From NCBI GenBank assembly GCA_016176465.1, contig JACOXD010000010.1:7497-71496 (forward strand): 64,000 nt of DNA. The letters run 5' to 3'. Source of the stretch: Candidatus Daviesbacteria bacterium (lineage in GTDB: Bacteria > Patescibacteriota > Microgenomatia > Daviesbacterales > UBA10151). This document shows, piece by piece, positions 1,303-22,718 of the stretch. The position numbers and the translations under genes are program-made. Positions within the stretch are counted from its first letter, which is position 1. Every line of letters starts with the position of its first letter. The notes under the pieces were generated by a model. That model saw only the letters and a program-made list of their open reading frames with translations. It was not told where the DNA came from and ran no database searches.

Positions 1303-2718
1303 ATGACAAAAAAGATCATGAAAAAAACATTTGGACCAGCTAAAAATACAGATGAGCAAGTTAATGCTCAACCCTCCGCTATTCCGGTGATCACTGATGC
1401 TGCGCTTAAGGACGTTAGTACGCAAGCTTCGCTTATTACCAAAGAAACAGAGCTAGCTAAAAGAGAAGGGATTTTAGAAGAGAGAGAGCGACAAATTGAG
1501 GAAAAATTAAAAATCCTTGATCAAAAATTAGAGCAAGTAGAAAAAGTAAGAAAAGATTTACTAAGTAAACTTGAAAAATCCTCCAAGATGTCTGCAGAGG
1601 ATGCTCAAAAAATACTTTTAGAAAGTGTTGAAAAAGATTTAGCTTCTGAAATATCTAAAAAAGTAAAAGAAGCAGAGGATCAAATCAAACTCCAAGCTGA
1701 TGAAAAAGTAAGGGAAATTTTAGCAGATTCTATGCTTCATGGAGTCACTGATGTAATCAGCGAATTTACAACCTCAAAAGTCACACTGGAGGATGAAGAA
1801 CTAAAAGGAAGGATTATTGGAAAAGAAGGAAGGAATATCCGTTCTTTTGAACAAGCAACAGGGGTTGACGTAGTTATGGATGATGAATCCCCTAATAATT
1901 TAATTTTATCTTCCTTTGATCCTGTAAGGAGAGAAATTGCTAAGGTATCTTTAGAGAGATTAATTGCTGATGGAAGGATTCAACCCCAAAGAATTGAAGA
2001 GATTGTAGAAAAAACTAAAGAAGATATTGAAAAGTTAATGTTACAAGCTGGAGAGAAACTTTGCCATGATGTTGGAATTTATAACATGCCAGTTGAGTTA
2101 ATGGCGCTACTCGGAAGATTTAAATATAGATACTCATATGGGCAAAATATGATTCAACATACTTTGGAAGAAACCCAAATTGGAGTTGAAATTGCCAGGC
2201 AAATTGGGGCTGATGTTAATGTAGTTAAACTTGGATGCTTGTTGCATGATATTGGAAAAATTTTAACTGATTGGGATGAAGGAACTCACGTTGAAAGAGG
2301 AGTGCAGCTTGCTAAAAAGTTTGGATTCCCGGAAAAAGTTGTTAATTGTATTGCGGAGCATCATGAAGACCAGCCATTTTCTGCAGTTGAATCTATCTGT
2401 GTATATTTGGGAGATGCAATTTCAGGTGGTCGCCCTGGCGCTCGCCATGAAAATGTTCAAGATTACATAAAACGTTTGGAAGATATCGAGCGGATTGCTA
2501 CTTCTTTTGAAGCAGTGGAGAAAGCTTTTGCAGTCCAAGCAGGAAGAGAAGTTAGAGTTGTAGTTTTTCCAGATAAAATCTCAGATGATGAGTTACCAAA
2601 ACTTGTACATGATATTGGTACCCAAATTCAAAAAGAAGTTATGGTTCCTGGTGCTGTTAAAATTACTGCTATTAGAGAAACAAGAGCTTCTGATCAATTC
2701 TTAACTTCAGGTGGGTAA
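1303..2718 (+). CDS. rny: Ribonuclease Y (KH domain + HD domain)
   Basis: KH motif GRIIGKEGRNIRSFEQATGVDV; HD motif LLHDIGK...HH; typical RNase Y C-terminus; no obvious N-terminal TM helix. Confidence 0.9.
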   Translation: MTKKIMKKTFGPAKNTDEQVNAQPSAIPVITDAALKDVSTQASLITKETELAKREGILEERERQIEEKLKILDQKLEQVEKVRKDLLSKLEKSSKMSAEDAQKILLESVEKDLASEISKKVKEAEDQIKLQADEKVREILADSMLHGVTDVISEFTTSKVTLEDEELKGRIIGKEGRNIRSFEQATGVDVVMDDESPNNLILSSFDPVRREIAKVSLERLIADGRIQPQRIEEIVEKTKEDIEKLMLQAGEKLCHDVGIYNMPVELMALLGRFKYRYSYGQNMIQHTLEETQIGVEIARQIGADVNVVKLGCLLHDIGKILTDWDEGTHVERGVQLAKKFGFPEKVVNCIAEHHEDQPFSAVESICVYLGDAISGGRPGARHENVQDYIKRLEDIERIATSFEAVEKAFAVQAGREVRVVVFPDKISDDELPKLVHDIGTQIQKEVMVPGAVKITAIRETRASDQFLTSGG

Positions 2719-3271
2719 AATGGAACCCAAGATTGTTTTTCAAGGACAAACAAAAACCGGTAAAAAAGTAATCATCCGCTACCCTACCATGGATGATCTT
2801 TTACCAATGCTTAATTTTATAAATACTATTTCTGTTGAACAAACTTTTGTACGGCCTCAAGGTGAACAATTCACACTAGAACAAGAAGAAGATTATTTAA
2901 AAGATCAGCTGGAAAAAATTGAAGCCAAAAAAGTTGTTAAATTAATAGCTTTTATTGATGGTAAATTTGTTGGGACAGCTGATATTTTTATGAAAGCTCA
3001 AGTTGAATCTCATGTAGGGGTATTTGGGATAATAGTAGCTAATGGATATAGAAGCGAAGGTATTGGAAGGCTGTTAATGGAGAATGTAATTAAAGAATCC
3101 CTTAAAGAGATGCCCCAGCTTAGAATAGTTGAGTTATCTGTATTTGCCAATAATCCGCTAGCGCTAGATTTTTATAAAAAGATGGGTTTTATAGAGTTTG
3201 GCAGATTACCTGAGGGTGTCTTGCACAGAGGCCAATATGTAGACCATATCTATATGTATAAAAAACTCTAG
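2711..3271 (+). CDS. GNAT family N-acetyltransferase
   Basis: Acetyl-CoA binding pattern RSEGIGRLLM, LALDFYKKMGF. Confidence 0.75.
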   Translation: MGKMEPKIVFQGQTKTGKKVIIRYPTMDDLLPMLNFINTISVEQTFVRPQGEQFTLEQEEDYLKDQLEKIEAKKVVKLIAFIDGKFVGTADIFMKAQVESHVGVFGIIVANGYRSEGIGRLLMENVIKESLKEMPQLRIVELSVFANNPLALDFYKKMGFIEFGRLPEGVLHRGQYVDHIYMYKKL

Positions 3272-3324
3272 AATAGTCTCTTTACAAACGCCTAAACATT
3301 TGTTATCTTTTTGCCACACTAATT

Positions 3325-3597
3325 ATGACCAAGAATCAGCTTATTGAAAAAGTAGCTAAAAAATCCCATTTGACCAAAAGAGCTGCACAGGATGCAGTTA
3401 ATGCTGTTTTTGATTTAATCAGAGATAATCTGCAAAGGGGAGAAAAAACAATTATCACTGGATTTGGTACTTTTTTAGTTAGATCTCGTGCAGCTAGGAG
3501 GGGCAGAAATCCTCAAACAGGTGAGGCTATTCAAATCCCCAGTAAAAAACTCCCTGGTTTTACTGCAGGTAAAACTATCAAAAGACAAGTGAGATAA
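3325..3597 (+). CDS. hup: DNA-binding protein HU
   Basis: 90 aa; MTKNQLIEKVA...GFGTF..RAARRGRNPQTGEAIQIP signature of HU/IHF family. Confidence 0.9.
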   Translation: MTKNQLIEKVAKKSHLTKRAAQDAVNAVFDLIRDNLQRGEKTIITGFGTFLVRSRAARRGRNPQTGEAIQIPSKKLPGFTAGKTIKRQVR

Positions 3598-3609
3598 TTT
3601 TTGTAAGTT

Positions 3610-5091
3610 GTGACAAGATCGAACAAATATCTCCTACTAATTCTCATTACTTTACTAGCAGCGCTACTTCGTTTAAACAACTTTCAATACGAATATGGTT
3701 TCTACGGCGATCAAGGACAGGATTTATTAGCAATTAATGATTGGATTAGAACTAATCAGGTTCCACTTCGGGGAATACTTACAAGTATCGGAAGTTTTTA
3801 TAATGGGCCAATCTATTACTACTTGATTTTTCCCCTAGTAATTTTTTTTGACGGTGATCCAATTGCGCCAGTAATTCTTTTTTTGATTGCAGGAATTCTC
3901 ACTACCCCCTTGGTATTTTACATGGTTGAAAAGTATGTTGATTCCTGGACTGCATTTATTAGCTCGGTACTTATTGCTCTCTCCTCTCATACAATCTTTA
4001 TATCTAAAGGAGCTTATGCACCTAACCTGCAAGTTTTTATATTTATTCTAATGTTTTATTTTTTCTTAAATTTTATTAAAACTGATAAAGCATTAAGTTT
4101 ATTCCTAGGATATCTGGTTATAGGAGTTGGTGTACAGTTTCACTATACGTTTTTTGCAAACCTATTTAGTTTTAGTTTGTTGCTTTTAATTTTAAAAAGA
4201 AAGAAAATAGTTTCAGCTAGGATGATACTATGTGCGATTGGAGGATTTTTACTAACCTTACTCCCTTTTATACTGGGCCAGTTTTTTTATAACTTCGCAG
4301 ATTTCAAAGGTATGGCATCATATATCATAAACGGAAATGATCAATCAAGAATAATAACCTTTCAGAGCATTACAGATAGGTTGGTTTTCCCATTTTTAAT
4401 TTATTTTAGAGTTGAACTAGTTCCTTGGTTTCTAACCTATTTTTTAAAACCAATTTTTTTACTCATCTTAATATTATGTTTTGTTATTGGTTTTACAAAA
4501 AACAGACTAGCGTCTTTTACAAAAGTTGTTTTATTTATTTTTTTTGCGAGTTTAACTTTGGTAGTTGTAGGTAATTTAAATTTTTGGTGGTGGTATAACG
4601 ATTTCTATTCTCTTACATCAATTTTTATGCTAGCGATTGTCTGTTCATACCTTATTCAATATGGCAAATTAAAATTCCTTGGATTATTTATATTTTCTGT
4701 TTTAATATTTTGGGAAATCGTGGGACTACCCTTTGCATACGGAATTTTAAGATCACCTCAGATAGCAAAGGAGATAGCCAGTATAATTAAAGCAGACATT
4801 GCTAAAAATAAAGATAAAGAAAGTTACGGTATCCTGGCGTTAAATCCAATTGCTCCATCCCAAGGTTTTGAATATAGATATTTGCTTGAAAAAGATGGTT
4901 ACCGTACAAGAAATGCTGTGGATTTAGCGGATGCAGATTATGTGATTGTAGAGGGTAAGGAAAGTAGAGGCATTAAAATAGATACTAAGTTAAAGATTAA
5001 TAAAATAAATACTTTAAACTTTAATGATAAAAGTCTTTTAATTAAATACGGCGAAATTTATAAAGTAGAAAGAAATCAAGAAACCCAGTAG
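3610..5091 (+). CDS. GT-C fold glycosyltransferase, ArnT/PMT_2-like (family 39/83) polytopic membrane protein
   Basis: GTG start; >10 predicted TM helices; N-terminal loop motif YGDQGQD...; architecture of dolichyl/undecaprenyl-phosphate-sugar dependent transferases. Confidence 0.6.
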   Translation: MTRSNKYLLLILITLLAALLRLNNFQYEYGFYGDQGQDLLAINDWIRTNQVPLRGILTSIGSFYNGPIYYYLIFPLVIFFDGDPIAPVILFLIAGILTTPLVFYMVEKYVDSWTAFISSVLIALSSHTIFISKGAYAPNLQVFIFILMFYFFLNFIKTDKALSLFLGYLVIGVGVQFHYTFFANLFSFSLLLLILKRKKIVSARMILCAIGGFLLTLLPFILGQFFYNFADFKGMASYIINGNDQSRIITFQSITDRLVFPFLIYFRVELVPWFLTYFLKPIFLLILILCFVIGFTKNRLASFTKVVLFIFFASLTLVVVGNLNFWWWYNDFYSLTSIFMLAIVCSYLIQYGKLKFLGLFIFSVLIFWEIVGLPFAYGILRSPQIAKEIASIIKADIAKNKDKESYGILALNPIAPSQGFEYRYLLEKDGYRTRNAVDLADADYVIVEGKESRGIKIDTKLKINKINTLNFNDKSLLIKYGEIYKVERNQETQ

Positions 5092-6455
5092 TGGTTAAAA
5101 TACATAACGGCAAGTAGACTCATTAATGTTAAAAAAATAAAAGTTCCTATCTTTTGCAAATATTCATTTCTGATCATTCCAAAAATAATAAATAAGGGAA
5201 AAATAACTAGGGCATATCTATGAATTGCGATAAGGGTCCCTGAGAATAAGGGTAAGCTAAATGCAAGCAAATAAAAAATACTGTAGGAGTATCTTAATTT
5301 ATAAGTAGAAAATAAAAGACCAACTAGCAATATACTAAATGAAAAAAATTCTATAATAGAGTGGGCAGTCCAAGGTATAGTAAATATGTTTTTGGCAATT
5401 AAAAAATTAAAGTAAGATATTGGAGCCTCCCAAGGAAGAGATAATTTTCGATGCCAGTTCTCCTCGTTTGTTAAAAAACTAAATGGAGCATTAAATTCTA
5501 GGTGCATAAAGAAAAGATAACCTAAAAAAGGGATTATAGAAACTAAAATAAGGATTAAAGCTTTAGATAATACTGTATTAAAAATTAAATTATTTAGGAT
5601 AAATTCTAAAACAACCAAAGCTAAAATAGCTCCAGCGATGGGGAGAAGAAATGGTACGTAAATATCCATTGCTCCAACAATTGGCCAAAGTTTTAAGTTA
5701 ATAAATATTGTTTGAAGAGATTTTACAAAAAAGGTAAATATTAGAAAGTAGAGGAAAAATCTTCTTAATTTAGTTGAAAACAAGTATTTTAAACTAAATG
5801 GATGAGGATTTTTTAATAAATACTCCGCTAAAATCGCTATGATTACTGCGATGCCGATTAATCGGGTAACTGCTGCCAATCCAGCCAGAAAAAAGGCTAG
5901 CAACCATCTTTTGCTAGATTGGTTAGAGTTTAATCCAAGCTTTGCGGTTCTGGAAAAATAAAAAGCAGAGATTGTTAAAAATAAAAACAATGGTTCAGAA
6001 TAAACGGCACCTAAATAAAAACTGGTAGGAAAAATCAAAAGTGCAAAAATTGCTCTTTTGGCGATTGTTTGGTCAAAATCAATTAGGATGAGTTTATATA
6101 AGAAAAAAAGAGCAATTATTGTTGATAAGTTAGTAATAAGCAGACCTCCCCACAGGGAGGGAATTCCAAGGTGCATTAGGATATTTATTAGTAAAGGGAG
6201 TAAGGGGAAGAAAACTGTTTGGACGCTTTTATATCCTGCTTCGGCAATTCCTCTAAAATGTCCTCCGTCCCAGTTTGCCCAATGATTTAAGTATCTGACC
6301 TCTATGCTTGGAGTACCGTTCCCTTCATTTAAAAAATCAGGAAATTTATTAGGTAAAAGACTTACTCCAATAAAGGTAAGAAAAAGCAGTGCTACCCGCC
6401 ACCCAAGAAATATCAAAACTACATATTTTAAAATTCCAAGATTTTCTTTTGACAA
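5076..6455 (-). CDS. Polytopic integral membrane protein, putative GT-C glycosyltransferase (GT87/DUF2029-like)
   Basis: ~12 hydrophobic segments, conserved loop W..GGHF.GIAEAGY; convergent overlap with 3610-5091. Confidence 0.45.
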   Translation of the reverse strand: MSKENLGILKYVVLIFLGWRVALLFLTFIGVSLLPNKFPDFLNEGNGTPSIEVRYLNHWANWDGGHFRGIAEAGYKSVQTVFFPLLPLLINILMHLGIPSLWGGLLITNLSTIIALFFLYKLILIDFDQTIAKRAIFALLIFPTSFYLGAVYSEPLFLFLTISAFYFSRTAKLGLNSNQSSKRWLLAFFLAGLAAVTRLIGIAVIIAILAEYLLKNPHPFSLKYLFSTKLRRFFLYFLIFTFFVKSLQTIFINLKLWPIVGAMDIYVPFLLPIAGAILALVVLEFILNNLIFNTVLSKALILILVSIIPFLGYLFFMHLEFNAPFSFLTNEENWHRKLSLPWEAPISYFNFLIAKNIFTIPWTAHSIIEFFSFSILLVGLLFSTYKLRYSYSIFYLLAFSLPLFSGTLIAIHRYALVIFPLFIIFGMIRNEYLQKIGTFIFLTLMSLLAVMYFNHYWVS

Positions 6456-6481
6456 CTTAAGAAGGATTATATATTAAAATT

Positions 6482-7015
6482 TTATGGAGTATACTTAAAA
6501 GATTTTGCAATTTGATCAAGATCATCATAGAGCTCTTTAGAGGAGGTAGAGAGTTTATAGACAAAATTGTCAGAATATATAAAATAAATCTTCTCACCAG
6601 TGGGAGAGACATCTGTAGACTTGTAAATACGCACAGAACTTTGATACTTATTGATTTTAATTTCTTTCTTTTCTAAAACTTCTAATTTGGTTACTTTATC
6701 AAAATTGTCTAAATAGCTGACAAGATCATTAAATTGTGTCCCGTTCCTATTTACATATATTTTTCCGTCCGGTGAAGTAAGTATTAATCTAGAAGTTTCC
6801 TCTTTCATATTAAATTCTGGGGGAACATCTAGCTGGAGTTTCAGATTTGAGGAAGAAAATAAATCATGCTTCTGAGTGGAGTTATTTAGAGAACTACTTG
6901 TGCTTCCATTTAATGTTTGGCTATCTTCTTTTTTGTTAAGTAAATTTTGCTTACTATAAACACTTAATAATCCAAAAAGGAAGATTATCCCGATAATTAT
7001 AAAAATAAATTTCAT
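6482..7015 (-). CDS. Hypothetical membrane-anchored secreted protein
   Basis: N-terminal TM/signal anchor MKFIFIIIGIIFLFGLL; Ser/Asn-rich linker. Confidence 0.4.
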   Translation of the reverse strand: MKFIFIIIGIIFLFGLLSVYSKQNLLNKKEDSQTLNGSTSSSLNNSTQKHDLFSSSNLKLQLDVPPEFNMKEETSRLILTSPDGKIYVNRNGTQFNDLVSYLDNFDKVTKLEVLEKKEIKINKYQSSVRIYKSTDVSPTGEKIYFIYSDNFVYKLSTSSKELYDDLDQIAKSFKYTP

Positions 7016-7088
7016 TACGAGTAACTATATTTAAGTGTACCTTTTTCTTTAAAAAACATATAATATTTTTATTCCAAAGTAATTACCT

Positions 7089-9432
7089 TTATTCTGTATG
7101 ATCATGAGGAACAATAATAGGTATTTCCTCAATATTTTCATTTCCCGCCAAATCTCTTGCTATCAATCTTATTATATACACCCTACCATCTTTATCACCA
7201 CCTTTTCTTTTTGCTGGTAGTTGAATGATATCTTGGAAGTTGGTTGCTACTATTTTAGTTGAATCGAATTCGTGGTACTCATCGTCAATCTCCAAAGTTG
7301 TGCTATCAAAATGTTGATCATTACTACTCCCTGTTATATTAATATCTGCCATCTCTCCTGAGGGTGGCCAGAGGATTTTAGGGTTTGCATCTAAAGAAGC
7401 TTCAGGTTGAGTTTTATCAATGTTAAACTCTATTGTTTTCACTTCTTCTAAATTCTCATCGTTATCAACAGAGTAAAATTCAACTCTATGATTGCCCTCA
7501 TTACTAAAAACCAGCGGTGGGCTATATCTTTCCCAATCACCACCTTCTACTTTGAACAAAGTGTAATCTACCCCTAAGCCACTATCATTAGATTCTAAGA
7601 GCACTTCTACATCAGACCTAAACCAGTTTTCCTGACCTTTTTCTCCTTTTAATTTGGCTGTAGTAGTTGGTGCTTCAGTATCTATTCTTTCAGCCAATAA
7701 AGCAAAATAGCTAAAGTGATTTAAATTGGCAACTGCAGTTTTATTATTTAAATTAACAGTGGTTTGCTCTTTAACCCAATTTTTTCCATCTGGGCTGGAA
7801 TATATAGAAATTGTATTTGGGTCAATATTAGAAATATCTTGATTATTAAAGTTGACAGTTAGAGTATAGATACTATTAAACTGATCAACTATATTACCAA
7901 AGCCATTTAATGCGCTCGCAAATAAAGAAGTTCCTATGGAGATGAGATTGTTAGAAGTCTTAGTTGTGGGAGCAGATTCCAATTTTATATCTAAATCATC
8001 ATTTGTCGCCCCTGAGGGAAAATTTAAGTTAAATTTTTCTAAGTTAAAAACCCCACCGTTACTAGTTAACTTGCTATTAAGATTATCTATTTGTTTTTTC
8101 CATAAATAATAGCTTTTAGATCCAGACCTATTTTTGCCTCCGTAGGAAAAAGTATAATTTTCCCATGGGTCGAGTTCGCTGCTTTGCCAGCCAAAAGGAT
8201 CTATTACTCCATCAGGTAAATTATTTTCAAAATCGCCATCACCATCTTTATCATAAACAACCATAAAATGGATATGAGCACCTGTAGATTTACCAGTACT
8301 GCCAGTTAATCCAATCTGTTCCCCTGCCTTTACATCAACATTATCGTTGGGATCACTAATGATAAGTTCTTTTGCTAATAGGTGGTAATATCGAGTTTGG
8401 AAACCGTTACCGTGATCTATTAAAATGGTATTGCCGCAAGCACCACAAGAATTCGTAAAACTTGCTTTTCCATCAGCTGCTGCTAAAACTGGGGTTTCTA
8501 GCGTTACTTTTGCAGGCTTGCCATAATCATAGCCATCATGTGAGGAATAGTCATCAGTAGATCTTGGTGGTCCCAAATAGCTAATTACAGAATTGCTTGA
8601 ACCTGATGGTTCTCCCAACCCACTACTTAGTAATGGATACTCATGGTCAAAAAAAGAATTAATTGATAAAGCAGCATCAGTAAAGGTAAGACCGCTAGAT
8701 TGATAATCCCAAGGTAGTTCTAAGAAAGGCTGAGGAGGAATATCTTTTACTCTAATATAATCTACAATAAAATTTGTCCAATCTGGTAGAGGAGGACCAA
8801 AATAGTCTGGATTTCCCATCCAAATGTATTGAACTTGTTCTGGAATTGGAAGGGAGGTATGAATTAATATATTATCAAGATAAATTCTATATATTATCAA
8901 GATAAATTCTATAAATTTGTTTATCCCTTTCAATTTTTAGTATATGGTCATTTGTATTTGTGGGACTTGTGTAAATACTACTCCCATTAAAATCTATTCT
9001 CATATTTGGACCGACAGATAGATCCTGCCAAACATTTATAGTTAGTAAAAGATCCACAGCTTCCCCATTTTTTGGTTCTTTTTCTGAAAGACCAATTCCA
9101 GTTCCCCAGTATGTAACTTTGGTATATCTAAATTTAATTTCAGCTTCAAAGTTAGAATTTGGCAAAGCATTCTTTGATACAGCTAGGGGGAATTTTGAAG
9201 TATTAAATTTCTGGGTAAAAAGTACAACCCCATTTGACTCTCTAATGGTGAAATTAAAAGGTTCATTATTTGGATAGACAGTCCACTTATTATTATCCAG
9301 GGTATTTACTGCTCTCTCAGTATTAAACTCATCGTTAAAATAATATTCCTGAGCAAAAACTTTTTTGGGCAATAGGATAACTAAAAATGAAGATAAAAAA
9401 ACAATCCAGATAAATTGTCTAATTCTGGGCAA
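7089..9432 (-). pseudogene. Secreted M23 (LytM-type) metallopeptidase with N-terminal GH16/ConA-like lectin domain and C-terminal Ig-like domains, split into two ORFs (8887-9432 and 7089-8933) by a 22-bp tandem duplication
   Basis: Signal peptide in 5' ORF; DEFN..W GH16-like motif; M23 motifs IDHGNGFQTRYYHL and GAHIHF in 3' ORF; both ORFs share YRIYLDNI encoded by the duplicated 22-mer; removing one copy restores one ~780-aa frame. Confidence 0.65.
8869..8912. repeat. Perfect 22-bp tandem duplication (ATATTATCAAGATAAATTCTAT x2) causing the frameshift in the M23 peptidase gene
   Basis: Read directly; 22 is not a multiple of 3. Confidence 0.9.
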
Positions 9433-9546
9433 TTTAATTTAATCTTCTATCCAAATAAACCTAAAGTCAATATAATTACTTTTGGTTTTGGAATTTTTCA
9501 CTGAAGCACTATACATCAGCCAGCTCTTAGTATTAAAATTTAGCTT

Positions 9547-10536
9547 ATGGTAAATCAAGTTATTAAAGTTAAAAACTTAAGAAAATATTACAAGGTTCAC
9601 CAAAAAGAGCCTGGCTTAATTGGTTCTATAAAGTCTTTTTTCAGTAGGAAATATTATGATGTCAAAGCAGTAGAAAATGTCTCCTTTACCATAGATGAAG
9701 GAGAGCTGATTGGGTTTATTGGGCCAAACGGTGCAGGTAAAACTACAACCTTAAAAGTTCTATCTGGATTGCTTTATCCAACCTCAGGAGATGTATCAGT
9801 TTTAGGATATGAACCTTTCAAAAGACAAAGCGAATTTCAAAAACAATTTTCCTTAGTAATGGGTCAAAAAAACCAGTTATGGTGGGATCTGCCTCCTTGG
9901 GAGAGTTTTATTTTAAATAAAGAGATTTATGAAATTCCAGAAGAACAGTTTAAAAAGACAGTTGAGGAGCTCTCAAGAATGTTGGAAATTACTGATATTT
10001 TAAAAATCCAAGTTAGAAAGTTGTCTTTAGGACAGAGAATGAAAGCAGAGCTTGTGGCAGCGCTACTTCACAATCCCAAAGTTTTATTTTTAGATGAACC
10101 AACAATTGGTTTAGATGTATTAGCCCAAAAAAAGATGAGGGATTTTATCAAAGAGTATAATCTTAAATTTAATGCAACAATTATTTTAACTTCTCACTAC
10201 ATGGGAGATGTCAGGGAGCTTTGCAATAGGGTAATTATTATTGATAAGGGGCAAATATTATATGATGGTTTACTTGATGATATAGTCCAAAAATTTGCCC
10301 CTTATAAAGTTATTAAAGCTGATTTAGAAAAAGAAGTTGATGAAAAAAAATTATCAGGGGTTGGAGAGGTAAAAGAGTATCGAGACCTTCAAGTAATTAT
10401 TCATGTACCAAAAGATGAGGCAAGTAAGAAAGCTGCTAAACTTTTGGGGAAGTTTCCCGTAGCTGATTTAACAATTGAGGATCCTCCTATTGAAGATATA
10501 ATTAGAACTGTTTTTTCAAAGGGAATGGATATATGA
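9547..10536 (+). CDS. ABC transporter ATP-binding protein (ABC-2 type exporter)
   Basis: Walker A GPNGAGKTT, signature LSLGQRMK, Walker B LLFLDEPT. Confidence 0.85.
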   Translation: MVNQVIKVKNLRKYYKVHQKEPGLIGSIKSFFSRKYYDVKAVENVSFTIDEGELIGFIGPNGAGKTTTLKVLSGLLYPTSGDVSVLGYEPFKRQSEFQKQFSLVMGQKNQLWWDLPPWESFILNKEIYEIPEEQFKKTVEELSRMLEITDILKIQVRKLSLGQRMKAELVAALLHNPKVLFLDEPTIGLDVLAQKKMRDFIKEYNLKFNATIILTSHYMGDVRELCNRVIIIDKGQILYDGLLDDIVQKFAPYKVIKADLEKEVDEKKLSGVGEVKEYRDLQVIIHVPKDEASKKAAKLLGKFPVADLTIEDPPIEDIIRTVFSKGMDI

Positions 10537-10811
10537 CAAAACCTAAAGAAGATAAAAAATTTACTGTTCCAGAATCAATCATCAAGAACCTTTTAACCCC
10601 CTCTGAAATTAGGATGGTGAAAAATAGATATTTTATCATCCAGCTTTTATCTGAAGGTTTATCAATCAGGAGCGTTGCAAAAAAAGCAAAGGTAGGAACA
10701 GATACTGTTGTTAGAGTTGCCAGATTGATGGAGAAAAGCAACCTTAAAAAAAATATAGTAGTGAAAAAAACCTCAAAGACTTCTTGGGTTTTTGGCAAGG
10801 GTAATGAATAA
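10533..10811 (+). CDS. TrpR/YerC-YecD-like small DNA-binding protein
   Basis: 92 aa; HTH pattern SIRSVAKKAKVGTDTVVRVAR typical of TrpR-related YerC/YecD family; overlaps both neighbours by 4 and ~20 nt. Confidence 0.55.
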   Translation: MTKPKEDKKFTVPESIIKNLLTPSEIRMVKNRYFIIQLLSEGLSIRSVAKKAKVGTDTVVRVARLMEKSNLKKNIVVKKTSKTSWVFGKGNE

Positions 10812-11598
10812 ATATTTGGCGGTCTTCAAAATTAACTGGGAGAATGCCTTGGTTTATAGACTCAACTTTTCTTTATGGAGAGTGCGCTCAGTATTGCAAT
10901 TACTTTTAGTTTACTTTATTTGGTTTAGTGTTTTTCAATCACAACAAAGAATTTTTGGCTATGATCAAAGTTCGATATTAACTTATATTTTAATAGCGGC
11001 TTTGGTTAGGGCAATAGTTTTATCATCCCGGGTAATGGATGTGGCCAATGTAATTAACGAAGGGAGTGTTGCCAATTTTTTTCTAAAACCCATAAGTTTT
11101 ATTGGGTATTATTTTATCAGAGATCTCTCTGATAAGTTATTAAATATTTCTTTTGTTATATTTGAGCTCGCATTAATTCTTTTTCTTCTTAAACCCTCAA
11201 TTCTTATCCAAAAAAATTTATCTATTCTAGCCCTTTTTTTATTAGCCGTTTTTTTAGGGTTATTTCTATTTTTTATAATTTCTTTTATTGTAGGTTTAAT
11301 GTCATTTTGGGTAGAAAATTCTTGGGGTTTGTTTTTTTTAATGTATATATTCCTTGAAACTTTTGGAGGAGGAATATTCCCAATAGATATTTTGCCAAGT
11401 CCCTATTCTCAAATATTTTTAATCGCCCCATTTCCTTATCTTCTTTATTTCCCTGCCAAAATATACTTGGGAACACTCGCAGTCCCAGAGCTCGTTAAAG
11501 GCTTTTTTATTCTTTCTTTTTGGATAATTGTTTTGTATTTTTTAATGGTTAAACTTTATCGCGCTGGTATAAGGCAATACAGCGCTGTTGGTCATTAA
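10792..11598 (+). CDS. ABC-2 family transporter permease
   Basis: 6 TM segments; follows ABC ATPase; TTG start (alternative ATG at ~10804). Confidence 0.6.
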   Translation: MARVMNKYLAVFKINWENALVYRLNFSLWRVRSVLQLLLVYFIWFSVFQSQQRIFGYDQSSILTYILIAALVRAIVLSSRVMDVANVINEGSVANFFLKPISFIGYYFIRDLSDKLLNISFVIFELALILFLLKPSILIQKNLSILALFLLAVFLGLFLFFIISFIVGLMSFWVENSWGLFFLMYIFLETFGGGIFPIDILPSPYSQIFLIAPFPYLLYFPAKIYLGTLAVPELVKGFFILSFWIIVLYFLMVKLYRAGIRQYSAVGH

Positions 11599-11599
11599 A

Positions 11600-12388
11600 A
11601 TGAAAAAATTCTATAAATATTTAAAGGTTTGGTGGATCTATGCTGTTAATACTTTACAAATTCAATTGGTTGTTCGCTGGGCAGTTGCCCTCTTCTTAAT
11701 AGCTAAACTTTTAAGGTTTGGAATATTCTTATTTTTTATTATTATTTTAGTTTCTCAGACTAGAGTTTTAGCAGGATACAGTTTGGATCAAACAATACTA
11801 TTTTTTTTATCTTTTAACTTAGTTGATATCTTAGCTCAAATGTTATTTAGGGAAGTATATCGATTTAGGCAAGCGATAGTTTCAGGAACTTTTGATTTTT
11901 ATTTAATGAAGCCGATTAATGTTTTGTTTAGGTCACTCCTTGGAGGACCTGATATTATTGATTTTATTACTTTAATTCCCTTAATTTGGGCAATAGTATA
12001 TTTTATTAATAGTTTAGATATTTCTTCCATAAATTTATTTATCTATATATTTCTTATAATTGCTGGATTTATTATTAGCATGGCCTTTCATATACTAGTT
12101 TTATCTTTGGCTGTTGTGACAACAGAAATAGATAGCGCAGTGCTTTTATATAGAGACGTCTCCGGAATGGGAAGAGTGCCAATTGATATTTATAAGGAAC
12201 CTATTCGGGGACTGTTAACTTTCGTGATTCCTGTTGGAATTATGATGACATTCCCCACTAAATCACTACTCGGATTGCTTTCTCCGCTAAGTATTTTATA
12301 TGCTTTTTTGTTTTCAATTGTATTTTTATTTACATCCTTAAAAGTTTGGCATCAAGCTGTATTAAAATATTCCTCCGCCAGTAGTTAA
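11600..12388 (+). CDS. ABC-2 family transporter permease (second subunit)
   Basis: 6 TM segments; ATG immediately after stop of previous permease (alternative TTG at 11588). Confidence 0.6.
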   Translation: MKKFYKYLKVWWIYAVNTLQIQLVVRWAVALFLIAKLLRFGIFLFFIIILVSQTRVLAGYSLDQTILFFLSFNLVDILAQMLFREVYRFRQAIVSGTFDFYLMKPINVLFRSLLGGPDIIDFITLIPLIWAIVYFINSLDISSINLFIYIFLIIAGFIISMAFHILVLSLAVVTTEIDSAVLLYRDVSGMGRVPIDIYKEPIRGLLTFVIPVGIMMTFPTKSLLGLLSPLSILYAFLFSIVFLFTSLKVWHQAVLKYSSASS

Positions 12389-13644
12389 AAAGGATTTTTT
12401 GTTAAATTAGTAAGGAAAAAATATTCAAGTAGGTTTTTTGGTAAAGGAATGCCAACTAAAATTGGAAAGGTAAGTAAAAATCCAAATAAAATCAAAAATA
12501 AAAGTAAAGTAGCATATTTTTTGTAAGAGTTATTTTCATATAAATGGTTTAGTTGATACCCAAGTGCTAAAGATAAAAAAGGAATTGAAGGGCTATAATG
12601 ATAAAGAAACATTATGCGTGGGGAAAAAGCCCAAGGAAGTAAAAAAACAAAATATCCCGCCAATATAATGAATAAGGCAAAAGACCTTCTTCTTAAAAAC
12701 TCAATAAATGAAAGTATTATTGCAACAACTCCACTGTAAAAAACGACTATATTACCAGATGCAAAAATATTAGAAATTGAATTTTTATGATAATCAACAA
12801 AATACCAAACCGGGTATAAATTAAATGGCCAGCTCCACCAAGGTGAAGAATAATCATGGGAGGCTTTTAAGCCGGTATGATACCAGAACATTTGTTTTTG
12901 CAGCTCTATAAATTGGGAAAAATTATGACCAAGTGTAAAAAAAGGAATATAAGTTATTAAATAAATGGCTGGCGGTATAGAAAGAAAGTAGATTAATTTT
13001 TTTAGAAAATTAAGATTTATTTTTTTGCTATGGTTTTGAAAGGTAAATATTAAAAAAAGGAATAAATAAAGATAGAGGGCGCTCCATTTTGAGGAAAGAG
13101 ATAAGCCTAAAAAAACAGAAGAAAGAAAATACTTTTTTTTAAAAAAAAATAGTAAACAAAAAAGCGCAAACGTTATAAAATAAATATCATTCATTCCTAT
13201 CCTTGATTGGACAAAATTTAATCCGTCAAAGGAAAATACAAATGCAGAAAATAAAGCCAAAGTAGTATTTTTAAAAAGAAATGAGGCTATTTGATATATT
13301 AATAGAATAGAAATTAATCCAAGGATTACACCCGGAATTCTCCATGCCCAAGCATCAGTTGATTGAAGTACAAACATGGAAGCAGTCATTATTTCTTTTG
13401 CTAGTGGTGGATGAGTCCACTCAAAAGCAACATCTTCAGGAGGCTTTGTCCACCACTCCCAGGCTTCTTTTGACCCCTTTAAATACTCCTTGGCTGTAAA
13501 TGCGTGATAAACCTCATCAAATACGAAAGAGTTGGGATAATCCAGCCTAAAAAAGCGCAAAAAAGCACTAAACAATATAAGAATCACTAACAGTTTTTTT
13601 ACTCGTAGGAAACCTCTGAATATAGAGAGTTTATTTTTTAGCAT
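12385..13644 (-). CDS. GT-C glycosyltransferase family 39 (protein O-mannosyltransferase PMT-like)
   Basis: Loop-1 motif FVFDEVYHAFTAKEY (catalytic DE of GT39) followed by many TM helices. Confidence 0.65.
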   Translation of the reverse strand: MLKNKLSIFRGFLRVKKLLVILILFSAFLRFFRLDYPNSFVFDEVYHAFTAKEYLKGSKEAWEWWTKPPEDVAFEWTHPPLAKEIMTASMFVLQSTDAWAWRIPGVILGLISILLIYQIASFLFKNTTLALFSAFVFSFDGLNFVQSRIGMNDIYFITFALFCLLFFFKKKYFLSSVFLGLSLSSKWSALYLYLFLFLIFTFQNHSKKINLNFLKKLIYFLSIPPAIYLITYIPFFTLGHNFSQFIELQKQMFWYHTGLKASHDYSSPWWSWPFNLYPVWYFVDYHKNSISNIFASGNIVVFYSGVVAIILSFIEFLRRRSFALFIILAGYFVFLLPWAFSPRIMFLYHYSPSIPFLSLALGYQLNHLYENNSYKKYATLLLFLILFGFLLTFPILVGIPLPKNLLEYFFLTNLTKNPF

Positions 13645-14860
13645 AGACTTCTTTTATAATGATAATTGTAACTAAATAAAAAATAACTGTTGAGAGTAGT
13701 GATAATATTTTGGAATAATCCTGCGCAAAAAAGTATAGAAAAGGTATATATAGAACTTTTGGCAAACTTAAGTAAAATTCATTGTAATAAATATAAACAT
13801 AATAAAGATTTAAGAAATGGATTAAAGATAAAATAAAATAAAGCAAAATAAGCCACTTATTTTTTATTTGAATTGCAAAAATTATTAAAAATATTAGGGC
13901 TGGGTAAAGATATCTTTCATGGACTCTAGTTGGTAAGAAAAAAAAGCTTAAGAAAGCCAAAGTGGAAAGACTGAAAAAGAAAAACTTTCTTTTGAAATAA
14001 GAATAAAAAATAATCAGCCAATAAAATATTAACAATATATAACCCCAGTGCTTATAAGAGATACCCTGCCAGATTGTTGAATCATTAATCCAAAATCCAA
14101 TCATGCCCCAAAAATTGTATGCATAAAGACTAATGAATTGATAATCTTCAACCATTCTAAAAAAAAGTTTCCAGATTCCCAATATAGGCTCAGATGGAAA
14201 AAAAGGAAGTGATAGAAAAAAAATGACAGCTATTGAAGACAAAGTTAATTGCAAAAAATGCCTTAAGCTTGGATATTTTAACAGATAAAAACAATAAACA
14301 GGAACTAACGCAATAGCTTGGGGTTTAATTAATATGGCTAATGCAATAAAAATTGAGGAAAGAGTAAGCCTTTTTGAATTTAAATAATAGATACTTAGAA
14401 ATAAAAATAAAGTTAAAATGGAATCAATTTGTCCCCAAATACTACTATTAAATAAAAATGCTGGATTAAATAAAACTACGATTGCAGCAAATAGCGCCAG
14501 CTTTTTCTTTCCCAATAGCTTAAATACTAAAAATGCAAGAATTAAATCTGCAATGATTGCCGGCATTTTTAATAAGTAGTAAAAGTTATAATCAGTAATA
14601 CTAAAAAAATTTTTAAAAGCACCTAAAAAAGCTAAGATGTATAAATACCCTGGAAGATAATTTGTCCAAACCTCATCTGAGTAAAATTTAGAAAACCCGA
14701 ACTCATTTAATCTAACTGCCCAGGCAAACCATGCACTCATATCAATCACCATCCCTGGGAGTGTTGCTAAAGTAAGTCTAATAATTAAAGCAACTATAAA
14801 AACAAATATCGTAATTTTTGCCATCTTTGACAATTTAGAACAAAAAAAGGAAATATTCAA
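13631..14860 (-). CDS. GT-C fold glycosyltransferase-like polytopic membrane protein
   Basis: ~11 TM helices, loop motif FYSDEVWTNYLPGY; adjacent and overlapping with GT39 gene. Confidence 0.5.
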   Translation of the reverse strand: MNISFFCSKLSKMAKITIFVFIVALIIRLTLATLPGMVIDMSAWFAWAVRLNEFGFSKFYSDEVWTNYLPGYLYILAFLGAFKNFFSITDYNFYYLLKMPAIIADLILAFLVFKLLGKKKLALFAAIVVLFNPAFLFNSSIWGQIDSILTLFLFLSIYYLNSKRLTLSSIFIALAILIKPQAIALVPVYCFYLLKYPSLRHFLQLTLSSIAVIFFLSLPFFPSEPILGIWKLFFRMVEDYQFISLYAYNFWGMIGFWINDSTIWQGISYKHWGYILLIFYWLIIFYSYFKRKFFFFSLSTLAFLSFFFLPTRVHERYLYPALIFLIIFAIQIKNKWLILLYFILSLIHFLNLYYVYIYYNEFYLSLPKVLYIPFLYFFAQDYSKILSLLSTVIFYLVTIIIIKEVYAKK

Positions 14861-14868
14861 TCTATAGA

Positions 14869-16125
14869 GTGAATACGTTATTATCTACAGTAATGAATAT
14901 GTTAGTCAAAAAATCTTGGATTTTATACTTACCTTTTTTAACACTTGGAATATTGATATTTCAATCCACACTCCCTTTGTGGTTTGGACATATTTCTACA
15001 GATACTTATGTCTATTATAATAGAGCAAGCTATTTTTTTAACAATCTTAACCTGGCTGATTTCGAGGGAAATGAGCATCTGCCAGGAGCAATCATTTATT
15101 TTATTTTAGCAACCCCTGCATTTTTCTTTAAGTCAACTTGGGAAAGTTATGTTTGGGGCTTTATAACTGTCAATTCAATTGCCACTTTAATAATAGATTT
15201 TTTTATTGCAAAAATTGCAGGATTAAAAAATATATTATTTTTATCCTTAATTTTATTATCAGTTGGCCCGATCTCTCTTTTTAGGTTTGATCTTTTAGTT
15301 GTTTTATTAACTATAATTTCTTTCTATTTTTTTATAAAAGAAAAAAATTTAAAATCTGCTTTCTTTCTTGGAAGTGCAACTTTAGTAAAAATATACCCAG
15401 TAATTTTTTTACCCTATTTACTCTATTTAATATATAAAAAACAAAATATTTTAGAAACTCTTAAATTTTTTTCTACTTATATATTAAGCCTAGTAGGTTT
15501 ACTGTGGCTTTATGTGCTTTTTTTTCAAGTTAGCATGGAAAATATTCTATTTAGTCTAACTTTTCATACATTAAAACCGGTACATACAGAGAGTCTTTGG
15601 ACAACCATCTTAACTATCTATTCGTATCTGGTTAATAATACTTACCCTGAAATTGTTAGTGCCTGGGGAATAAATGGGTTAGCAGAAAAATATTGGCTAC
15701 TACCGCTTTGGTTTTACAACTACGCCTGGGTTTTACCTGTGGGATTGTTTTATATATGGCTTCTTAAAAATAGAAAAAAATTTGAAAATTTTGATATTAG
15801 GATACCAATCTTGATTGTTTTACTTTTTTTAATATTCTCTAAAGTGCTGTCTCACCAATATCTTCTTTGGTTTTTATTACTAATTCCCCTTTTAAACTAT
15901 AAAAGATTAATGAGTAGAGCTTGGATTGTAAATATTTTTTTAATCCTACTAACTAATCTATTACATCAATATATTTATCCTTTAAATTACACACAATTCT
16001 TAAATGATTATTACAACCATAATGTTCTTTCAAGCTATTTATTTTGGCTAAATGCTTTAAGTAATTTAATTTTAGTGATTATTTTTTGGAGAATTTTTAG
16101 GGAAATAAAAATTAAAGATGATTAA
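14869..16125 (+). CDS. Polytopic membrane protein, putative GT-C glycosyltransferase (GT87/DUF2029-like)
   Basis: ~12 TM helices; same architecture as 5076-6455. Confidence 0.45.
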   Translation: MNTLLSTVMNMLVKKSWILYLPFLTLGILIFQSTLPLWFGHISTDTYVYYNRASYFFNNLNLADFEGNEHLPGAIIYFILATPAFFFKSTWESYVWGFITVNSIATLIIDFFIAKIAGLKNILFLSLILLSVGPISLFRFDLLVVLLTIISFYFFIKEKNLKSAFFLGSATLVKIYPVIFLPYLLYLIYKKQNILETLKFFSTYILSLVGLLWLYVLFFQVSMENILFSLTFHTLKPVHTESLWTTILTIYSYLVNNTYPEIVSAWGINGLAEKYWLLPLWFYNYAWVLPVGLFYIWLLKNRKKFENFDIRIPILIVLLFLIFSKVLSHQYLLWFLLLIPLLNYKRLMSRAWIVNIFLILLTNLLHQYIYPLNYTQFLNDYYNHNVLSSYLFWLNALSNLILVIIFWRIFREIKIKDD

Positions 16126-17116
16126 GCAAAGCTTCTCTACGAGTAAAAAAATCCTGGTAATCTTGGGTCCAACTGCAACTGGTAAAACTGATTTAGCTTT
16201 AAGTGTGGCAAAAGAATTTAATGGAGAATTGGTAGCTGCTGACTCCAGACAAGTATACACTTGTTTAGATATTGGAACCGGTAAGTATCCAAGTAAAATT
16301 CCCCTTTGGGGGGGCGATGTAAAAAGGCAAAAATATTACTGGGAAATTGATGGGGTAAAGATCTGGATGTATGACATGGTTGATCCAAAGACTCAATACA
16401 GCGCTTTTGATTATGTTAAAGATGCTATGAGGGTTGTTGAGGATATTTCTAAAAGAGAATTACTGCCTATTATAGTAGGAGGGACTGGGTTTTATTTAAG
16501 AGCTTTAATAGATGGATTCTCCAATTTAGCCATTCCCGTAAATCAAAAGTTAAGAAGGGAGTTAGAGAAGTTAAATTTAGAGAAGTTGCAAAATAAATTA
16601 AGATTACTCTCCCCTGGTATATGGGAGGAGTTAAATGAATCTGATAGAAAAAACCCACGTCGACTCCTCCGTTCAATTGAGTGCTTATCTATGTATCCAT
16701 ACGCTAATAAACCTCAAATTCCAAATCTTAAATCGCAAAATTATAATATTTTAAAAATTGGTCTCGCTGCTCCTAAGCCCTTTTTGTATGAAAAAATAAA
16801 TTCCAGAGTTTTAGGATGGATTAAAGAAGGATTGATTGAGGAAGCATTAACTATCCATAAACAAGGTCTAAGCTTTAAGAGGATGGATGAACTTGGGCTA
16901 GAGTTTAAATATTTGGCAAAGTATCTTAAAGGGGATATAAATAAGGAGTCTCTTATTAGAGAAATTCAAGCTTCAACTCGAAGATATGCTAAAAGACAAC
17001 TTACTTGGTTTAAAAAAGAAAAAGATATTAAATGGTTTGATGTCTCTAAAAATAATTGGGATGCTTTAGTGGAAAAGTTAGTTTCTGATTGGTACAATAA
17101 CCTCTATGATTCGTAA
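16118..17116 (+). CDS. miaA: tRNA dimethylallyltransferase
   Basis: P-loop GPTATGKT, ADSRQVY, DIGTGK motifs. Confidence 0.9.
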   Translation: MIKQSFSTSKKILVILGPTATGKTDLALSVAKEFNGELVAADSRQVYTCLDIGTGKYPSKIPLWGGDVKRQKYYWEIDGVKIWMYDMVDPKTQYSAFDYVKDAMRVVEDISKRELLPIIVGGTGFYLRALIDGFSNLAIPVNQKLRRELEKLNLEKLQNKLRLLSPGIWEELNESDRKNPRRLLRSIECLSMYPYANKPQIPNLKSQNYNILKIGLAAPKPFLYEKINSRVLGWIKEGLIEEALTIHKQGLSFKRMDELGLEFKYLAKYLKGDINKESLIREIQASTRRYAKRQLTWFKKEKDIKWFDVSKNNWDALVEKLVSDWYNNLYDS

Positions 17117-18113
17117 GATTGATATTTCGCATAAAACTATATTTTTTATCGCGGGTTTTTTGGGGTTGCTTTGGGTACTCTACCAAATTAGAGATGTAAT
17201 AATTTTACTGTTTGTGGCGATCATTTTTATGTCAGCGCTGTCTCCATATGTAGAAAAAATGATGACTTGGAGAGTCCCGAAAGCATTAGCGATCACAATT
17301 GTTTATTTAGTTGTCATTTCTTTACTTGGTCTACTTTTGATATTGGTAATAAGGCCATTAATAGAACAAACCTCCAATTTAACTACCAGTTTGCCTGCAA
17401 CCCTAGAAACTATATTACCCCCAGGAACGATAAATAGAAACCTCTTAGAGGATAGATTGGGTGACTTTTTTGGTAATGTACCTAATGTAATATTGACAAT
17501 TTTTTCCAATATTCTTGCCATAATTTCTGTTACAGTTTTAACTTTTTACCTTTTGATTGATAAAAAAAGATTTGAAAGGTTGCTTTCCCAGGTTTTTGTT
17601 CCCCAGCAAGATAGAGCAAGAGGGATAATTGAAAAGATTGAAGAAAAATTAGGAGCGTGGCTACGTGGACAAATAGTTTTAAGTATCGTAATTGGCACGT
17701 TGTCTTATTTATTACTTTTTGCGCTAGGGGTTGATTATGCGCTTCCTTTGGCAATTTTGGCCGGAGTAATGGAGGTTGTTCCGGTTATTGGCCCCATAAT
17801 TTCTGCTATTCCAGCAGTATTAATTGCCTATATTATAAATCCTCCTTTGGCAATTGCAGTTGCAGTTGGGTATTTTTTAATTCAACAATTGGAAAATAAT
17901 ATAATTGTTCCACAAGTTATGAAAAGGGCTGTCGGACTAAATCCGCTAGTTGTAATTGTTGCCATTGCGATTGGTGGTAGATTGCTAGGGATATCTGGGG
18001 CATTGTTGGCAGTGCCTATAACCGTTTTGGTTCAAATTATAGCGGAGGAGTTATTGAATCTAGATTTGGGTTCAAGACCTTTGACCAAAAATAATACTCC
18101 AAAGAGTGTTTAA
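17106..18113 (+). CDS. AI-2E family transporter (PerM/UPF0118)
   Basis: 8 TM helices, conserved C-terminal LGISGALLAVP motif. Confidence 0.8.
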   Translation: MIRKIDISHKTIFFIAGFLGLLWVLYQIRDVIILLFVAIIFMSALSPYVEKMMTWRVPKALAITIVYLVVISLLGLLLILVIRPLIEQTSNLTTSLPATLETILPPGTINRNLLEDRLGDFFGNVPNVILTIFSNILAIISVTVLTFYLLIDKKRFERLLSQVFVPQQDRARGIIEKIEEKLGAWLRGQIVLSIVIGTLSYLLLFALGVDYALPLAILAGVMEVVPVIGPIISAIPAVLIAYIINPPLAIAVAVGYFLIQQLENNIIVPQVMKRAVGLNPLVVIVAIAIGGRLLGISGALLAVPITVLVQIIAEELLNLDLGSRPLTKNNTPKSV

Positions 18114-18125
18114 CTAATAATTTGT

Positions 18126-18524
18126 GCTTAGGAAGCTTGTAAGCCAGATTCTGTTTTAGGCAGAATTTATCTGTAAGAGAGGCTTCGCCTCATCTAATGC
18201 TCCTGATTCCAACTATTAGTGCGAGCAGCTTAGTTGATTCTAGGATTGCAGCGGGGAGGATTGCCCTTCGACTCACTCTGTTCGCTCAGGGTTAAAACCC
18301 ATTGCTAATTAGTAAATCAAATACCCGTGTCGCTTGGTCGTTTCATCTGGCGCCACCCAGTTCGTCACTGTTGCTCTAACTAGGCCTTAGCCTTCGACTT
18401 CGCTCAGGCTACCCTGACTCCTATCGAAGGGTACAGCTTCCGGCTTGCACCGGACACCCTGCTCTATGCTGTCTGGACTTTCCTGTCCGATATAAATCGG
18501 ACTACTGCCCATCTTCCTAAGCTT
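18126..18524 (-). ncRNA. rnpB: RNase P RNA (bacterial type A)
   Basis: On minus strand: P1 pairing GCUUAGGAAG...CUUCCUAAGC; CR-I AGGAAAGUCCAGAC..AUAGAGCAGGGUG; CR-V ACAGAAUCUGGCUUA near 3' end; GC-rich island in AT-rich DNA; not in ORF track. Confidence 0.85.
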
Positions 18525-20403: not shown

Positions 20404-20430
20404 ACAGATTTGTGTTATATAAAATCTGTA

Positions 20431-22174: not shown

Positions 22175-22504
22175 TCAAAGCCATATTTGTCCAAAAAGGC
22201 TAAATCTGGCAAGACTTAAATATAATAAAGCTTGTAATCCTAAAGCTAAAAAGGATAAAATAAAAATTTTTAAAAGATCTAACTTTAGGTAGTTAAAATC
22301 CGAGTATAAGCTATCTTTGTTGGCTTTACTCGCAGAGAAGTTTTGCTTATCCGAAGGAAAGCTTTGCTTATCACGAAGGGACAAGCTTTGCTTACTTACA
22401 GGAAAGGTAAGTTTGCTTTTTATACTAGAGGTAGTTGAAGCGCTGCCATATAGCTGCTTTTTTAAATTCTGAAGCTTCTTTTCATCTAAAGTTAATTTAT
22501 ACAT
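22175..22504 (-). CDS. Hypothetical membrane-anchored protein with degenerate tandem 7-8-aa repeats (DKQSFPS-like)
   Basis: ~22-bp imperfect DNA repeats AAGCTTTGCTTAT x4 at 22331-22425; C-terminal TM helix. Confidence 0.45.
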   Translation of the reverse strand: MYKLTLDEKKLQNLKKQLYGSASTTSSIKSKLTFPVSKQSLSLRDKQSFPSDKQNFSASKANKDSLYSDFNYLKLDLLKIFILSFLALGLQALLYLSLARFSLFGQIWL

Positions 22505-22718
22505 CTTTAGCCTCTCCTACTATGGCAATGAGCCTAGCACGTTCAATTGAGCCTGTCAAGCACGAAATGCATTTTTGCACCTTGCCCTATAGTTGAAAAT
22601 ACGATATAATTTTTGAAATGAATGCTAAACTTTTAAGTAAAATGATTAATACCTATTGGTTTTACTTCCTCTAAAAAGGGAGTATTTTCTAACGCCAATA
22701 AAAAGGCCTTGGAAGAAA

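Follow-up and report, generated by a model that had tools for sequence, protein, structure and literature searches.

Does a Daviesbacteria genome carry a short duplication that switches off a cell-wall hydrolase, is it in the course of losing the gene, or does the duplication belong to the deposited assembly and not to the organism? The question arises from a window of 64,000 nt (the whole stretch of DNA analysed here, in whose positions all coordinates are given) on a 147,299-bp GenBank contig of a Candidatus Daviesbacteria bacterium. In this window, a perfect tandem repeat lies exactly where one minus-strand open reading frame (ORF) ends and another begins. A sequence-only reading of the window had offered three explanations for this arrangement: a recent pseudogenization by strand slippage, a reversible ON/OFF switch and an assembly artefact. 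We have followed up these explanations using orthologues, an independent assembly of the same population and the remainder of the deposited contig.

Extent and uniqueness of the duplication

At 8869-8912, the 22-bp unit ATATTATCAAGATAAATTCTAT occurs twice head to tail, without a mismatch between the copies. Both a direct check of the sequence and Tandem Repeats Finder (array at 8867-8917, period 22, 2.3 copies, score 95) agree with what had been read from the letters. Identity at this period runs slightly beyond the two units (Table 1), and the exact junction of the repeat is ambiguous by 3 bp. The window has a GC content of 34.7% and zero Ns, and among perfect tandem duplications whose unit is 10 nt or longer it contains just two. 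The second of these has a 21-nt unit at 39666-39709, which matches the further short duplication that the sequence-only reading had pointed to at 39667-39708. As units of at least 15 nt appeared in none of 200 first-order Markov simulations of the window (0/200), a chance origin of the 22-bp duplication can be dismissed. Microhomology of 2-3 bp is present at the ends of both duplications. Rfam and tRNA scans of the whole window detected no RNA element near the 22-bp repeat; the sole match in the window was a tRNA-Gln (48377-48448).

Table 1. Positions of the duplications, the affected genes and the independent coverage within the window.
Feature	Position	Strand	Details
Copy 1 of the 22-bp unit	8869-8890		ATATTATCAAGATAAATTCTAT
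Copy 2 of the 22-bp unit	8891-8912		ATATTATCAAGATAAATTCTAT; missing from Logan contig L001
Full period-22 identity	8867-8913		two units plus 3 bp of flanking microhomology
Two-copy form, copy 1-copy 2 junction of the 22-bp repeat			ATAAATTCTATATATTATCAAGATAAATTC
Single-copy form, diagnostic	8840-8940		GAATTAATATATTATCAAGATAAATTCTATAAATTTG
5' fragment of the split gene	8887-9432	minus	181 aa; GenBank MBI2011975.1, locus tag HYS91_04360
3' fragment of the split gene	7089-8933	minus	ORF of 614 aa; GenBank MBI2011974.1
Whole gene	7089-9432	minus	773 aa after removal of one repeat copy
Acetolactate synthase large-subunit gene (ilvB)	39442-41226	minus	GenBank MBI2012009.1
Second perfect tandem duplication	39666-39709		unit of 21 bp; identity at this period spans 44 nt
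Junction of the 21-bp duplication	39640-39740		...GACTGAAGAGCGTTTTCTATCGACTGAAGAGCGTCTCC
34-nt absence in the window relative to Logan contig L003	42035/42036		missing sequence ATAGTAGTAGAAAGATAGGTGAACAGGTTAAAGT; aspartate-tRNA ligase gene (aspS)
Window form at the 34-nt deletion site	42000-42070		CTAGTTTTATTGTGGCTGG
Coverage by SRR12113430 contigs	2686-10107, 10125-18154, 22365-27988, 27966-30641, 34268-39418, 41652-47633		

The split gene and its restored product

The 181-aa ORF ends in ...KQIYRIYLDNI, followed by a stop codon, and the 614-aa ORF includes ...IIYRIYLDNILIHTSLPIPEQ... (also quoted as ...YRIYLDNILIHTSLPIPEQ...). When one repeat copy was deleted in silico, the two became a single uninterrupted ORF of 773 aa reading ...ERDKQIYRIYLDNILIHTSLPIPEQ..., and so the proposal that the duplication splits one gene, whose frames are fused by the loss of one copy, is borne out. 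In GenBank, the downstream part is represented by MBI2011974.1, which is titled 'M23 family metallopeptidase [Candidatus Daviesbacteria bacterium]' and starts at an internal Met. This protein has 576 aa (7089-8819) and is 100% identical to the window over all 576 aa. Further GenBank proteins of the deposited contig are MBI2011976.1, MBI2012009.1 and MBI2012011.1.

The restored protein begins with an N-terminal hydrophobic segment resembling a signal peptide, followed by a domain of about 200 aa, an M23 peptidase domain and further beta-rich domains. The M23 domain (Pfam PF01551, residues 291-387) scores 66.6 bits against a gathering cutoff of 28.7, and its zinc-ligand motifs, HxxxD (H291, D295) and HxH (H379, H381), are invariant among the homologues aligned. 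From this score above the gathering threshold and from these motifs, the restored protein is classified as a member of peptidase family M23. An OmpL47-type barrel domain was also recognized (NF047446, 55 bits against a cutoff of 40).

The duplication breaks the reading frame within the N-terminal domain, ahead of its last strands. Thus, the 5' fragment holds the signal peptide and most of this domain, and the 3' fragment holds the end of it together with the M23 domain, the beta-sandwich domains and the OmpL47-type barrel domain, without a signal peptide of its own. The two-copy form would yield a truncated and probably misfolded secreted fragment, with the peptidase part left lacking a signal peptide, and would thus be a null allele.

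The nature of the N-terminal domain needed separate attention, as the gene had been described as encoding a secreted GH16-lectin/M23 protein of about 780 aa. No Pfam family matched this domain. An AlphaFold2 model built with 10 homologues (mean pLDDT 86.5, pTM 0.85) is an all-beta sandwich. In a Foldseek search of the PDB, it most resembled GH16 glycoside hydrolases and the Emp47p L-type lectin domain (E about 1e-9 to 1e-7, TM about 0.6-0.7). The predicted model therefore has the beta-jelly-roll fold of GH16. At the level of sequence, the best profile matches in the PDB had E = 0.04-0.1 (the carbohydrate-binding module of a levanase, and GH16 enzymes), and the catalytic ExDx(x)E motif of GH16 was not found, the candidate strand GDFxAEIKFQY having one conserved Glu. 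A true GH16 enzyme is thus rejected: the fold agrees, but both the catalytic motif and a family-level sequence match are missing. Going by the model, the domain is probably a non-catalytic, lectin-like module with a concanavalin-like/GH16 fold, and with the catalytic motif missing 'lectin-like module' is the safer description. Of the original description, therefore, the predicted secretion, the M23 domain and the approximate length (773 aa) stand, and GH16 applies at the level of fold only.

Orthologues are unsplit

A search of 5.8 billion proteins gave 413 relatives at E <= 0.001, and most of the named ones come from Microgenomates (Daviesbacteria, Curtissbacteria and Levybacteria). Nine orthologues, with identities of 41-53%, are single ORFs that are collinear with the restored protein and show no gap across the junction, where the consensus in the alignment is ER....Y.IYLD..LI.TS......YIWMGNP. 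None of the nine has a repeat at the duplication site. Two other aligned proteins (P0036 and P0084) have a more divergent N-terminal domain with a match to PF06439 and are uninformative on the junction. The comparison with orthologues that had been proposed as a check thus supports one gene, and the alignment indicates that ancestrally there was a single gene containing the 22-bp unit once.

The multidomain M23 peptidoglycan metallopeptidases of Microgenomates, within the Candidate Phyla Radiation (CPR), are one of the closest known systems. Hundreds of CPR homologues have the same domain order, and the HxxxD and HxH motifs are shared. Once one repeat copy is removed, the restored gene is an ordinary member of this family and nothing notable sets it apart.

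These comparisons also bear on two readings in which the two-ORF arrangement is functional. It is next to impossible that the locus holds two genuine genes, one for a small, secreted lectin-like protein and another for an M23 peptidase, as the two CDSs annotated in GenBank (MBI2011975.1 and MBI2011974.1) would have it, because the break lies inside a single predicted beta-sandwich domain and leaves the downstream fragment without a signal peptide, and because the nine collinear orthologues and the Logan contig of the same population described below each have one ORF. Programmed ribosomal frameshifting was likewise rejected, as neither the orthologues nor the same-population contig need it and the shift results from 22 extra nt that are absent elsewhere.

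An independent assembly of the same population has one copy

The most direct evidence on the second copy comes from Logan contigs of the run SRR12113430, which were retrieved through a protein cluster (L001) or by exact look-up of window proteins and cover about 35 kb of the window (Table 1). Contig SRR12113430_2657 (L001, 7,400 bp) aligns to 2686-10107 with 0 mismatches and one gap of 22 nt. It has one repeat copy and an intact gene, and it encodes a protein (P0122) of 753 aa, called from an internal start, that reads through the junction exactly as predicted for the single-copy product (...ERDKQIYRIYLDNILIHTSLPIPEQ...). The restored window protein is identical to P0122, which shares a 90%-identity cluster with MBI2011974.1. 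Over the whole of the roughly 35 kb, the window departs from these contigs by the 22-nt duplication, a deletion of 34 nt and 3 substitutions (46714, 47613 and 47627). The same population was also seen in contigs from SRR12113420, SRR12113424 and SRR12113384, and hence in at least four runs in all; the contigs from SRR12113424 differ from the window by 2 substitutions.

A short repeat can be lost when an assembler collapses it, and we considered whether L001 might have arisen in this way. Logan assembles its contigs at k=31, using read k-mers seen at least twice. In 8801-8980, the longest repeated word is 25 nt, shorter than k-1 = 30, and there are no repeated 30-mers. A de Bruijn graph at k=31 would therefore be unable to collapse a true repeat at this site, and single-copy reads must exist. 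Five 31-mers spanning the single-copy junction are specific to L001 and missing from the window, and 27 are specific to the window relative to L001. Judged from these words, single-copy molecules must be the dominant or only path in the SRR12113430 sample, and the single-copy allele is present in public reads of this population.

The two-copy form was also sought in other collections. No indexed assembly encodes the truncated product, either as the 181-aa protein or as the 161-aa version expected from the alternative start of the Logan caller. Exact look-ups of the downstream fragment (P0001, identical to MBI2011974.1), of the neighbouring ABC ATPase and of the 809-aa and 348-aa ORFs gave no match. 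Furthermore, a search for one-copy, two-copy and other variants by an anchored pattern with a variable gap gave 0 matches in genome and metagenome contig collections that do not include the window's own genome.

Further anomalies on the deposited contig

The 22-bp duplication is not the only irregularity of its size on this contig. Compared with Logan contig L003, the window is missing 34 nt within aspS. This puts the gene out of frame, such that the ATG at 42013 in the window meets a TGA after 15 codons, and GenBank gives a truncated aspartate-tRNA ligase of 441 aa from a GTG at 42045 (MBI2012011.1), compared with 463 aa in L003. The OB-fold anticodon-binding domain (PF01336) begins at residue 17 of the 463-aa protein, and the window ORF begins at residue 23.

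The third anomaly is the 21-bp duplication in the acetolactate synthase gene, which is in frame and repeats RSSVDRK in the protein. These 7 extra residues are missing from all of the acetolactate synthase homologues aligned (8/8). The gene sits in 39419-41651, which is outside the retrieved Logan contigs, and look-ups with the full-length protein, its C-terminal 156 aa and two single-copy versions of the protein found no near-identical Logan counterpart. Thus, two of these three 21-34-nt anomalies, the 22-nt duplication and the 34-nt deletion, are contradicted by an independent assembly with otherwise identical flanks.

Origin of the second copy

Taken together, these results make it quite likely that the second 22-bp copy is an error from the building of the deposited metagenome-assembled genome (MAG), either in scaffolding or in local assembly. 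In the real genome there is most likely a single copy, and the gene would encode an intact, secreted 773-aa protein with lectin-like, M23 and beta domains. What would be expected of an artefact was found on two counts: an independent assembly of the same population lacks the duplication, and the scaffold shows other small structural anomalies. Of the three explanations offered originally, an assembly artefact is thus by far the best supported, by the single copy in Logan, the aspS deletion and the 21-bp duplication. Two further arguments point the same way. Three indels of 21-34 nt set against 3 substitutions in about 35 kb is an implausible ratio for natural variation, and aspS is essential, so that a frameshift in it should not reach the consensus in a viable population.

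The probable source of the MAG is the study of He et al. (2021; PMC7906910, BioProject PRJNA640378), an assignment suggested by the organism name, the GC content, the range of run numbers and the era of the accession. In that study, samples were assembled individually with MEGAHIT, after which the scaffolding function of IDBA-UD was applied (He et al., 2021). Daviesbacteria MAGs of 34-35% GC with names ending in _15 and _16 are listed there, and these suffixes, if read by the naming convention, would denote a coverage of about 15x. Neither the SRR numbers nor the HYS91 locus tag appeared in the supplementary files of PMC7906910 that were examined, and a literature search for SRR12113430 found no paper. 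Local assembly errors have been described as prominent in IDBA-UD, as has duplicate sequence that flanks scaffold joins and needs manual removal (Chen et al., 2020, Genome Res; PMC7111523). The duplication studied here resembles those errors, being short, perfect and gene-breaking in a scaffolded short-read MAG and missing from an independent assembly, but it differs in form in that Ns lie between the duplicated ends in PMC7111523 and there are no Ns here.

We infer that the software step responsible was the joining of contigs by the scaffolder. The IDBA scaffolder trims or pads joins by estimated distance and not by verified overlap, which would leave small duplications or deletions without Ns. 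Neighbouring contigs would have been joined without exact treatment of their ends; residual overlap at a join would then be repeated perfectly in tandem over a short length (22 bp here and 21 bp in acetolactate synthase), and a small real gap closed without Ns would appear as a short deletion (34 nt in aspS). A single technical origin of this kind would account for all three anomalies, and the two-copy junction would have no read support. The microhomology at the ends, of the length seen in real slippage duplications, sits less easily with an artefact.

A real, unprogrammed duplication by replication slippage, present in part of the population or in another sample and captured in the consensus as an incipient pseudogene, is in our view unlikely, although several observations are in keeping with it. 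The perfect copies and the 3 bp of microhomology are what a recent slippage event would leave. A secreted M23 hydrolase might also be dispensable where paralogues exist; the family has many members in Daviesbacteria, and paralogues are putative for this genome. Furthermore, microdiversity exists, and with 3 substitutions separating the MAG from SRR12113430 and the population occurring in several runs, the MAG possibly derives from a different run and the two alleles could differ between samples. However, this explanation needs three independent indels of 21-34 nt in conserved genes, one of them frameshifting an essential gene, and the independent assemblies show the single-copy allele only. 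We therefore continue to prefer an assembly error.

A reversible switch, in which gain and precise loss of the 22-bp copy would toggle the cell-wall hydrolase in the manner of cap3A, appears very improbable. Duplications in cap3A span 11-239 bp, a range that includes 22 bp, and a two-copy repeat of 22 bp is expected to revert at a low rate. The capsule gene cap3A of Streptococcus pneumoniae undergoes phase variation by tandem duplication (Waite et al., 2001, as cited in PMC11163986): a duplication within its ORF turns it OFF, and it is turned ON again when one copy is lost precisely. The locus described here is similar insofar as both states are on record with identical flanks, two copies in the MAG and one in the Logan contig, and insofar as the frame and the product return when one copy is removed exactly. 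A surface or cell-wall enzyme of an episymbiont would also be a plausible target of phase variation. However, one copy is seen in the SRR12113430 assembly and two in the MAG only, and coexistence of both forms in one sample is hypothetical; the site has no pre-existing repeat tract and nothing to suggest elevated duplication; and the nine collinear orthologues were aligned without a duplication there. Unlike cap3A, moreover, the anomalies are not specific to the gene, as others of the same size affect essential or housekeeping genes of the same contig (aspS and ilvB), where switching is senseless and a technical cause is indicated.

The simple sequence repeat (SSR) contingency loci of Neisseria, Haemophilus and Campylobacter offer a second comparison, since a gain or loss of repeat copies would there, too, put a surface-related gene out of frame. 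In those loci, however, many copies of 1-8-nt units undergo frequent slippage, whereas the present repeat has two copies, and its 22-nt unit is unique among the orthologues. An SSR contingency locus was rejected on these grounds. The wider proposition, that both forms are real and interconverting and that tandem duplications of about 20 bp are frequent, reversible mutations in an ultra-small CPR bacterium, one of which toggles its secreted lectin-M23 hydrolase, is also highly doubtful. If it were true, this would be phase variation of the cap3A kind in an uncultivated episymbiont, and the hydrolase concerned may act on the envelope of the host or on the cell's own.

Significance

If the second copy is an assembly error, as we think likely, the consequences are chiefly for the sequence record. 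Four GenBank proteins of the deposited contig are probably wrong: MBI2011974.1 and MBI2011975.1, which are halves of one gene; MBI2012011.1, which is an aspartate-tRNA ligase without its first 22 residues; and MBI2012009.1, which is an acetolactate synthase with a 7-residue insertion. The pipeline behind this MAG collection may leave a recurrent signature, in the form of small deletions and of perfect tandem duplications about 20 bp long. Anyone scanning such MAGs for pseudogenes, split genes or phase-variable repeats should verify the candidates against reads or independent assemblies beforehand. For the organism itself, the 22-bp duplication is most likely not a new biological feature, and the intact gene would be an ordinary peptidoglycan hydrolase of the CPR M23 family.

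Differences between the deposited contig and independent assemblies

Comparison with Logan contigs, which are independent assemblies of public runs, revealed a deletion and several substitutions in the deposited contig (see table). As 34 nt are absent from the window relative to the Logan contig L003, the reading frame of the aspartate-tRNA ligase gene is shifted there; the GenBank protein (MBI2012011.1) is N-terminally truncated, at 441 aa, and the Logan protein (P0248) has 463 aa. At position 46714, the window has A and the Logan contigs of both runs compared (SRR12113430 and SRR12113424) have G. The single-base differences show slight strain microdiversity, or else consensus differences between samples.

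The Logan contigs themselves are interrupted in places. Those of two different runs (SRR12113430 and SRR12113420) break at the identical place, 27966-27988, with an overlap of 23 nt, which suggests that the assembly graph branches at this point, not that coverage lapses. Furthermore, 17 nt are uncovered between two SRR12113430 contigs (10107/10125).

Features of the window
Feature	Position	Location or source
Trp-repressor-like small ORF	10533-10811	PF01371 in Logan gene call
Repeat of ~21-24 nt, AAGCTTTGCTTATCACGAAGGGAC-like, three imperfect copies	22338-22394	Intergenic
Aromatic amino-acid pathway and acetolactate synthase genes	22747-26313 and 34268-41226	
Second perfect tandem duplication, 21-bp unit	39666-39709	Inside acetolactate synthase large subunit gene, 39442-41226 (minus strand)
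34 nt missing	Join 42035/42036, within 42013-42060	Logan comparison; same 34 nt, L003 385-418
Single-base differences	45900, 46714, 47613, 47627	Deposited contig vs Logan contigs of two runs

Short repeats

The 21-bp duplication is in frame and adds RSSVDRK to acetolactate synthase, an insertion present in none of the eight aligned homologues. No independent assembly covering this stretch was found when Logan was searched with the acetolactate synthase protein. The imperfect repeat lies in an 800-nt region between ORFs 20410-21948 and 22747-23463, and contains the start of another Logan contig, L007 (22365); Rfam and tRNA scans of the window gave no match to it.

Gene content

Immediately upstream of the M23 hydrolase gene, and divergent from it, is the Trp-repressor-like ORF, which has the gene for an ABC ATPase on one side and those for two ABC-2 permeases on the other. 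The window also encodes EPSP synthase, shikimate kinase, chorismate synthase, DAHP synthase, a prephenate dehydrogenase/dehydratase fusion with an ACT domain, chorismate mutase and a class IV aminotransferase, together with an acetolactate synthase of the biosynthetic type. The aromatic amino-acid pathway looks fairly complete in this Daviesbacteria (CPR) genome. CPR bacteria are usually described as lacking such biosynthetic capacity and, given that description, its presence in a Daviesbacteria genome is notable.
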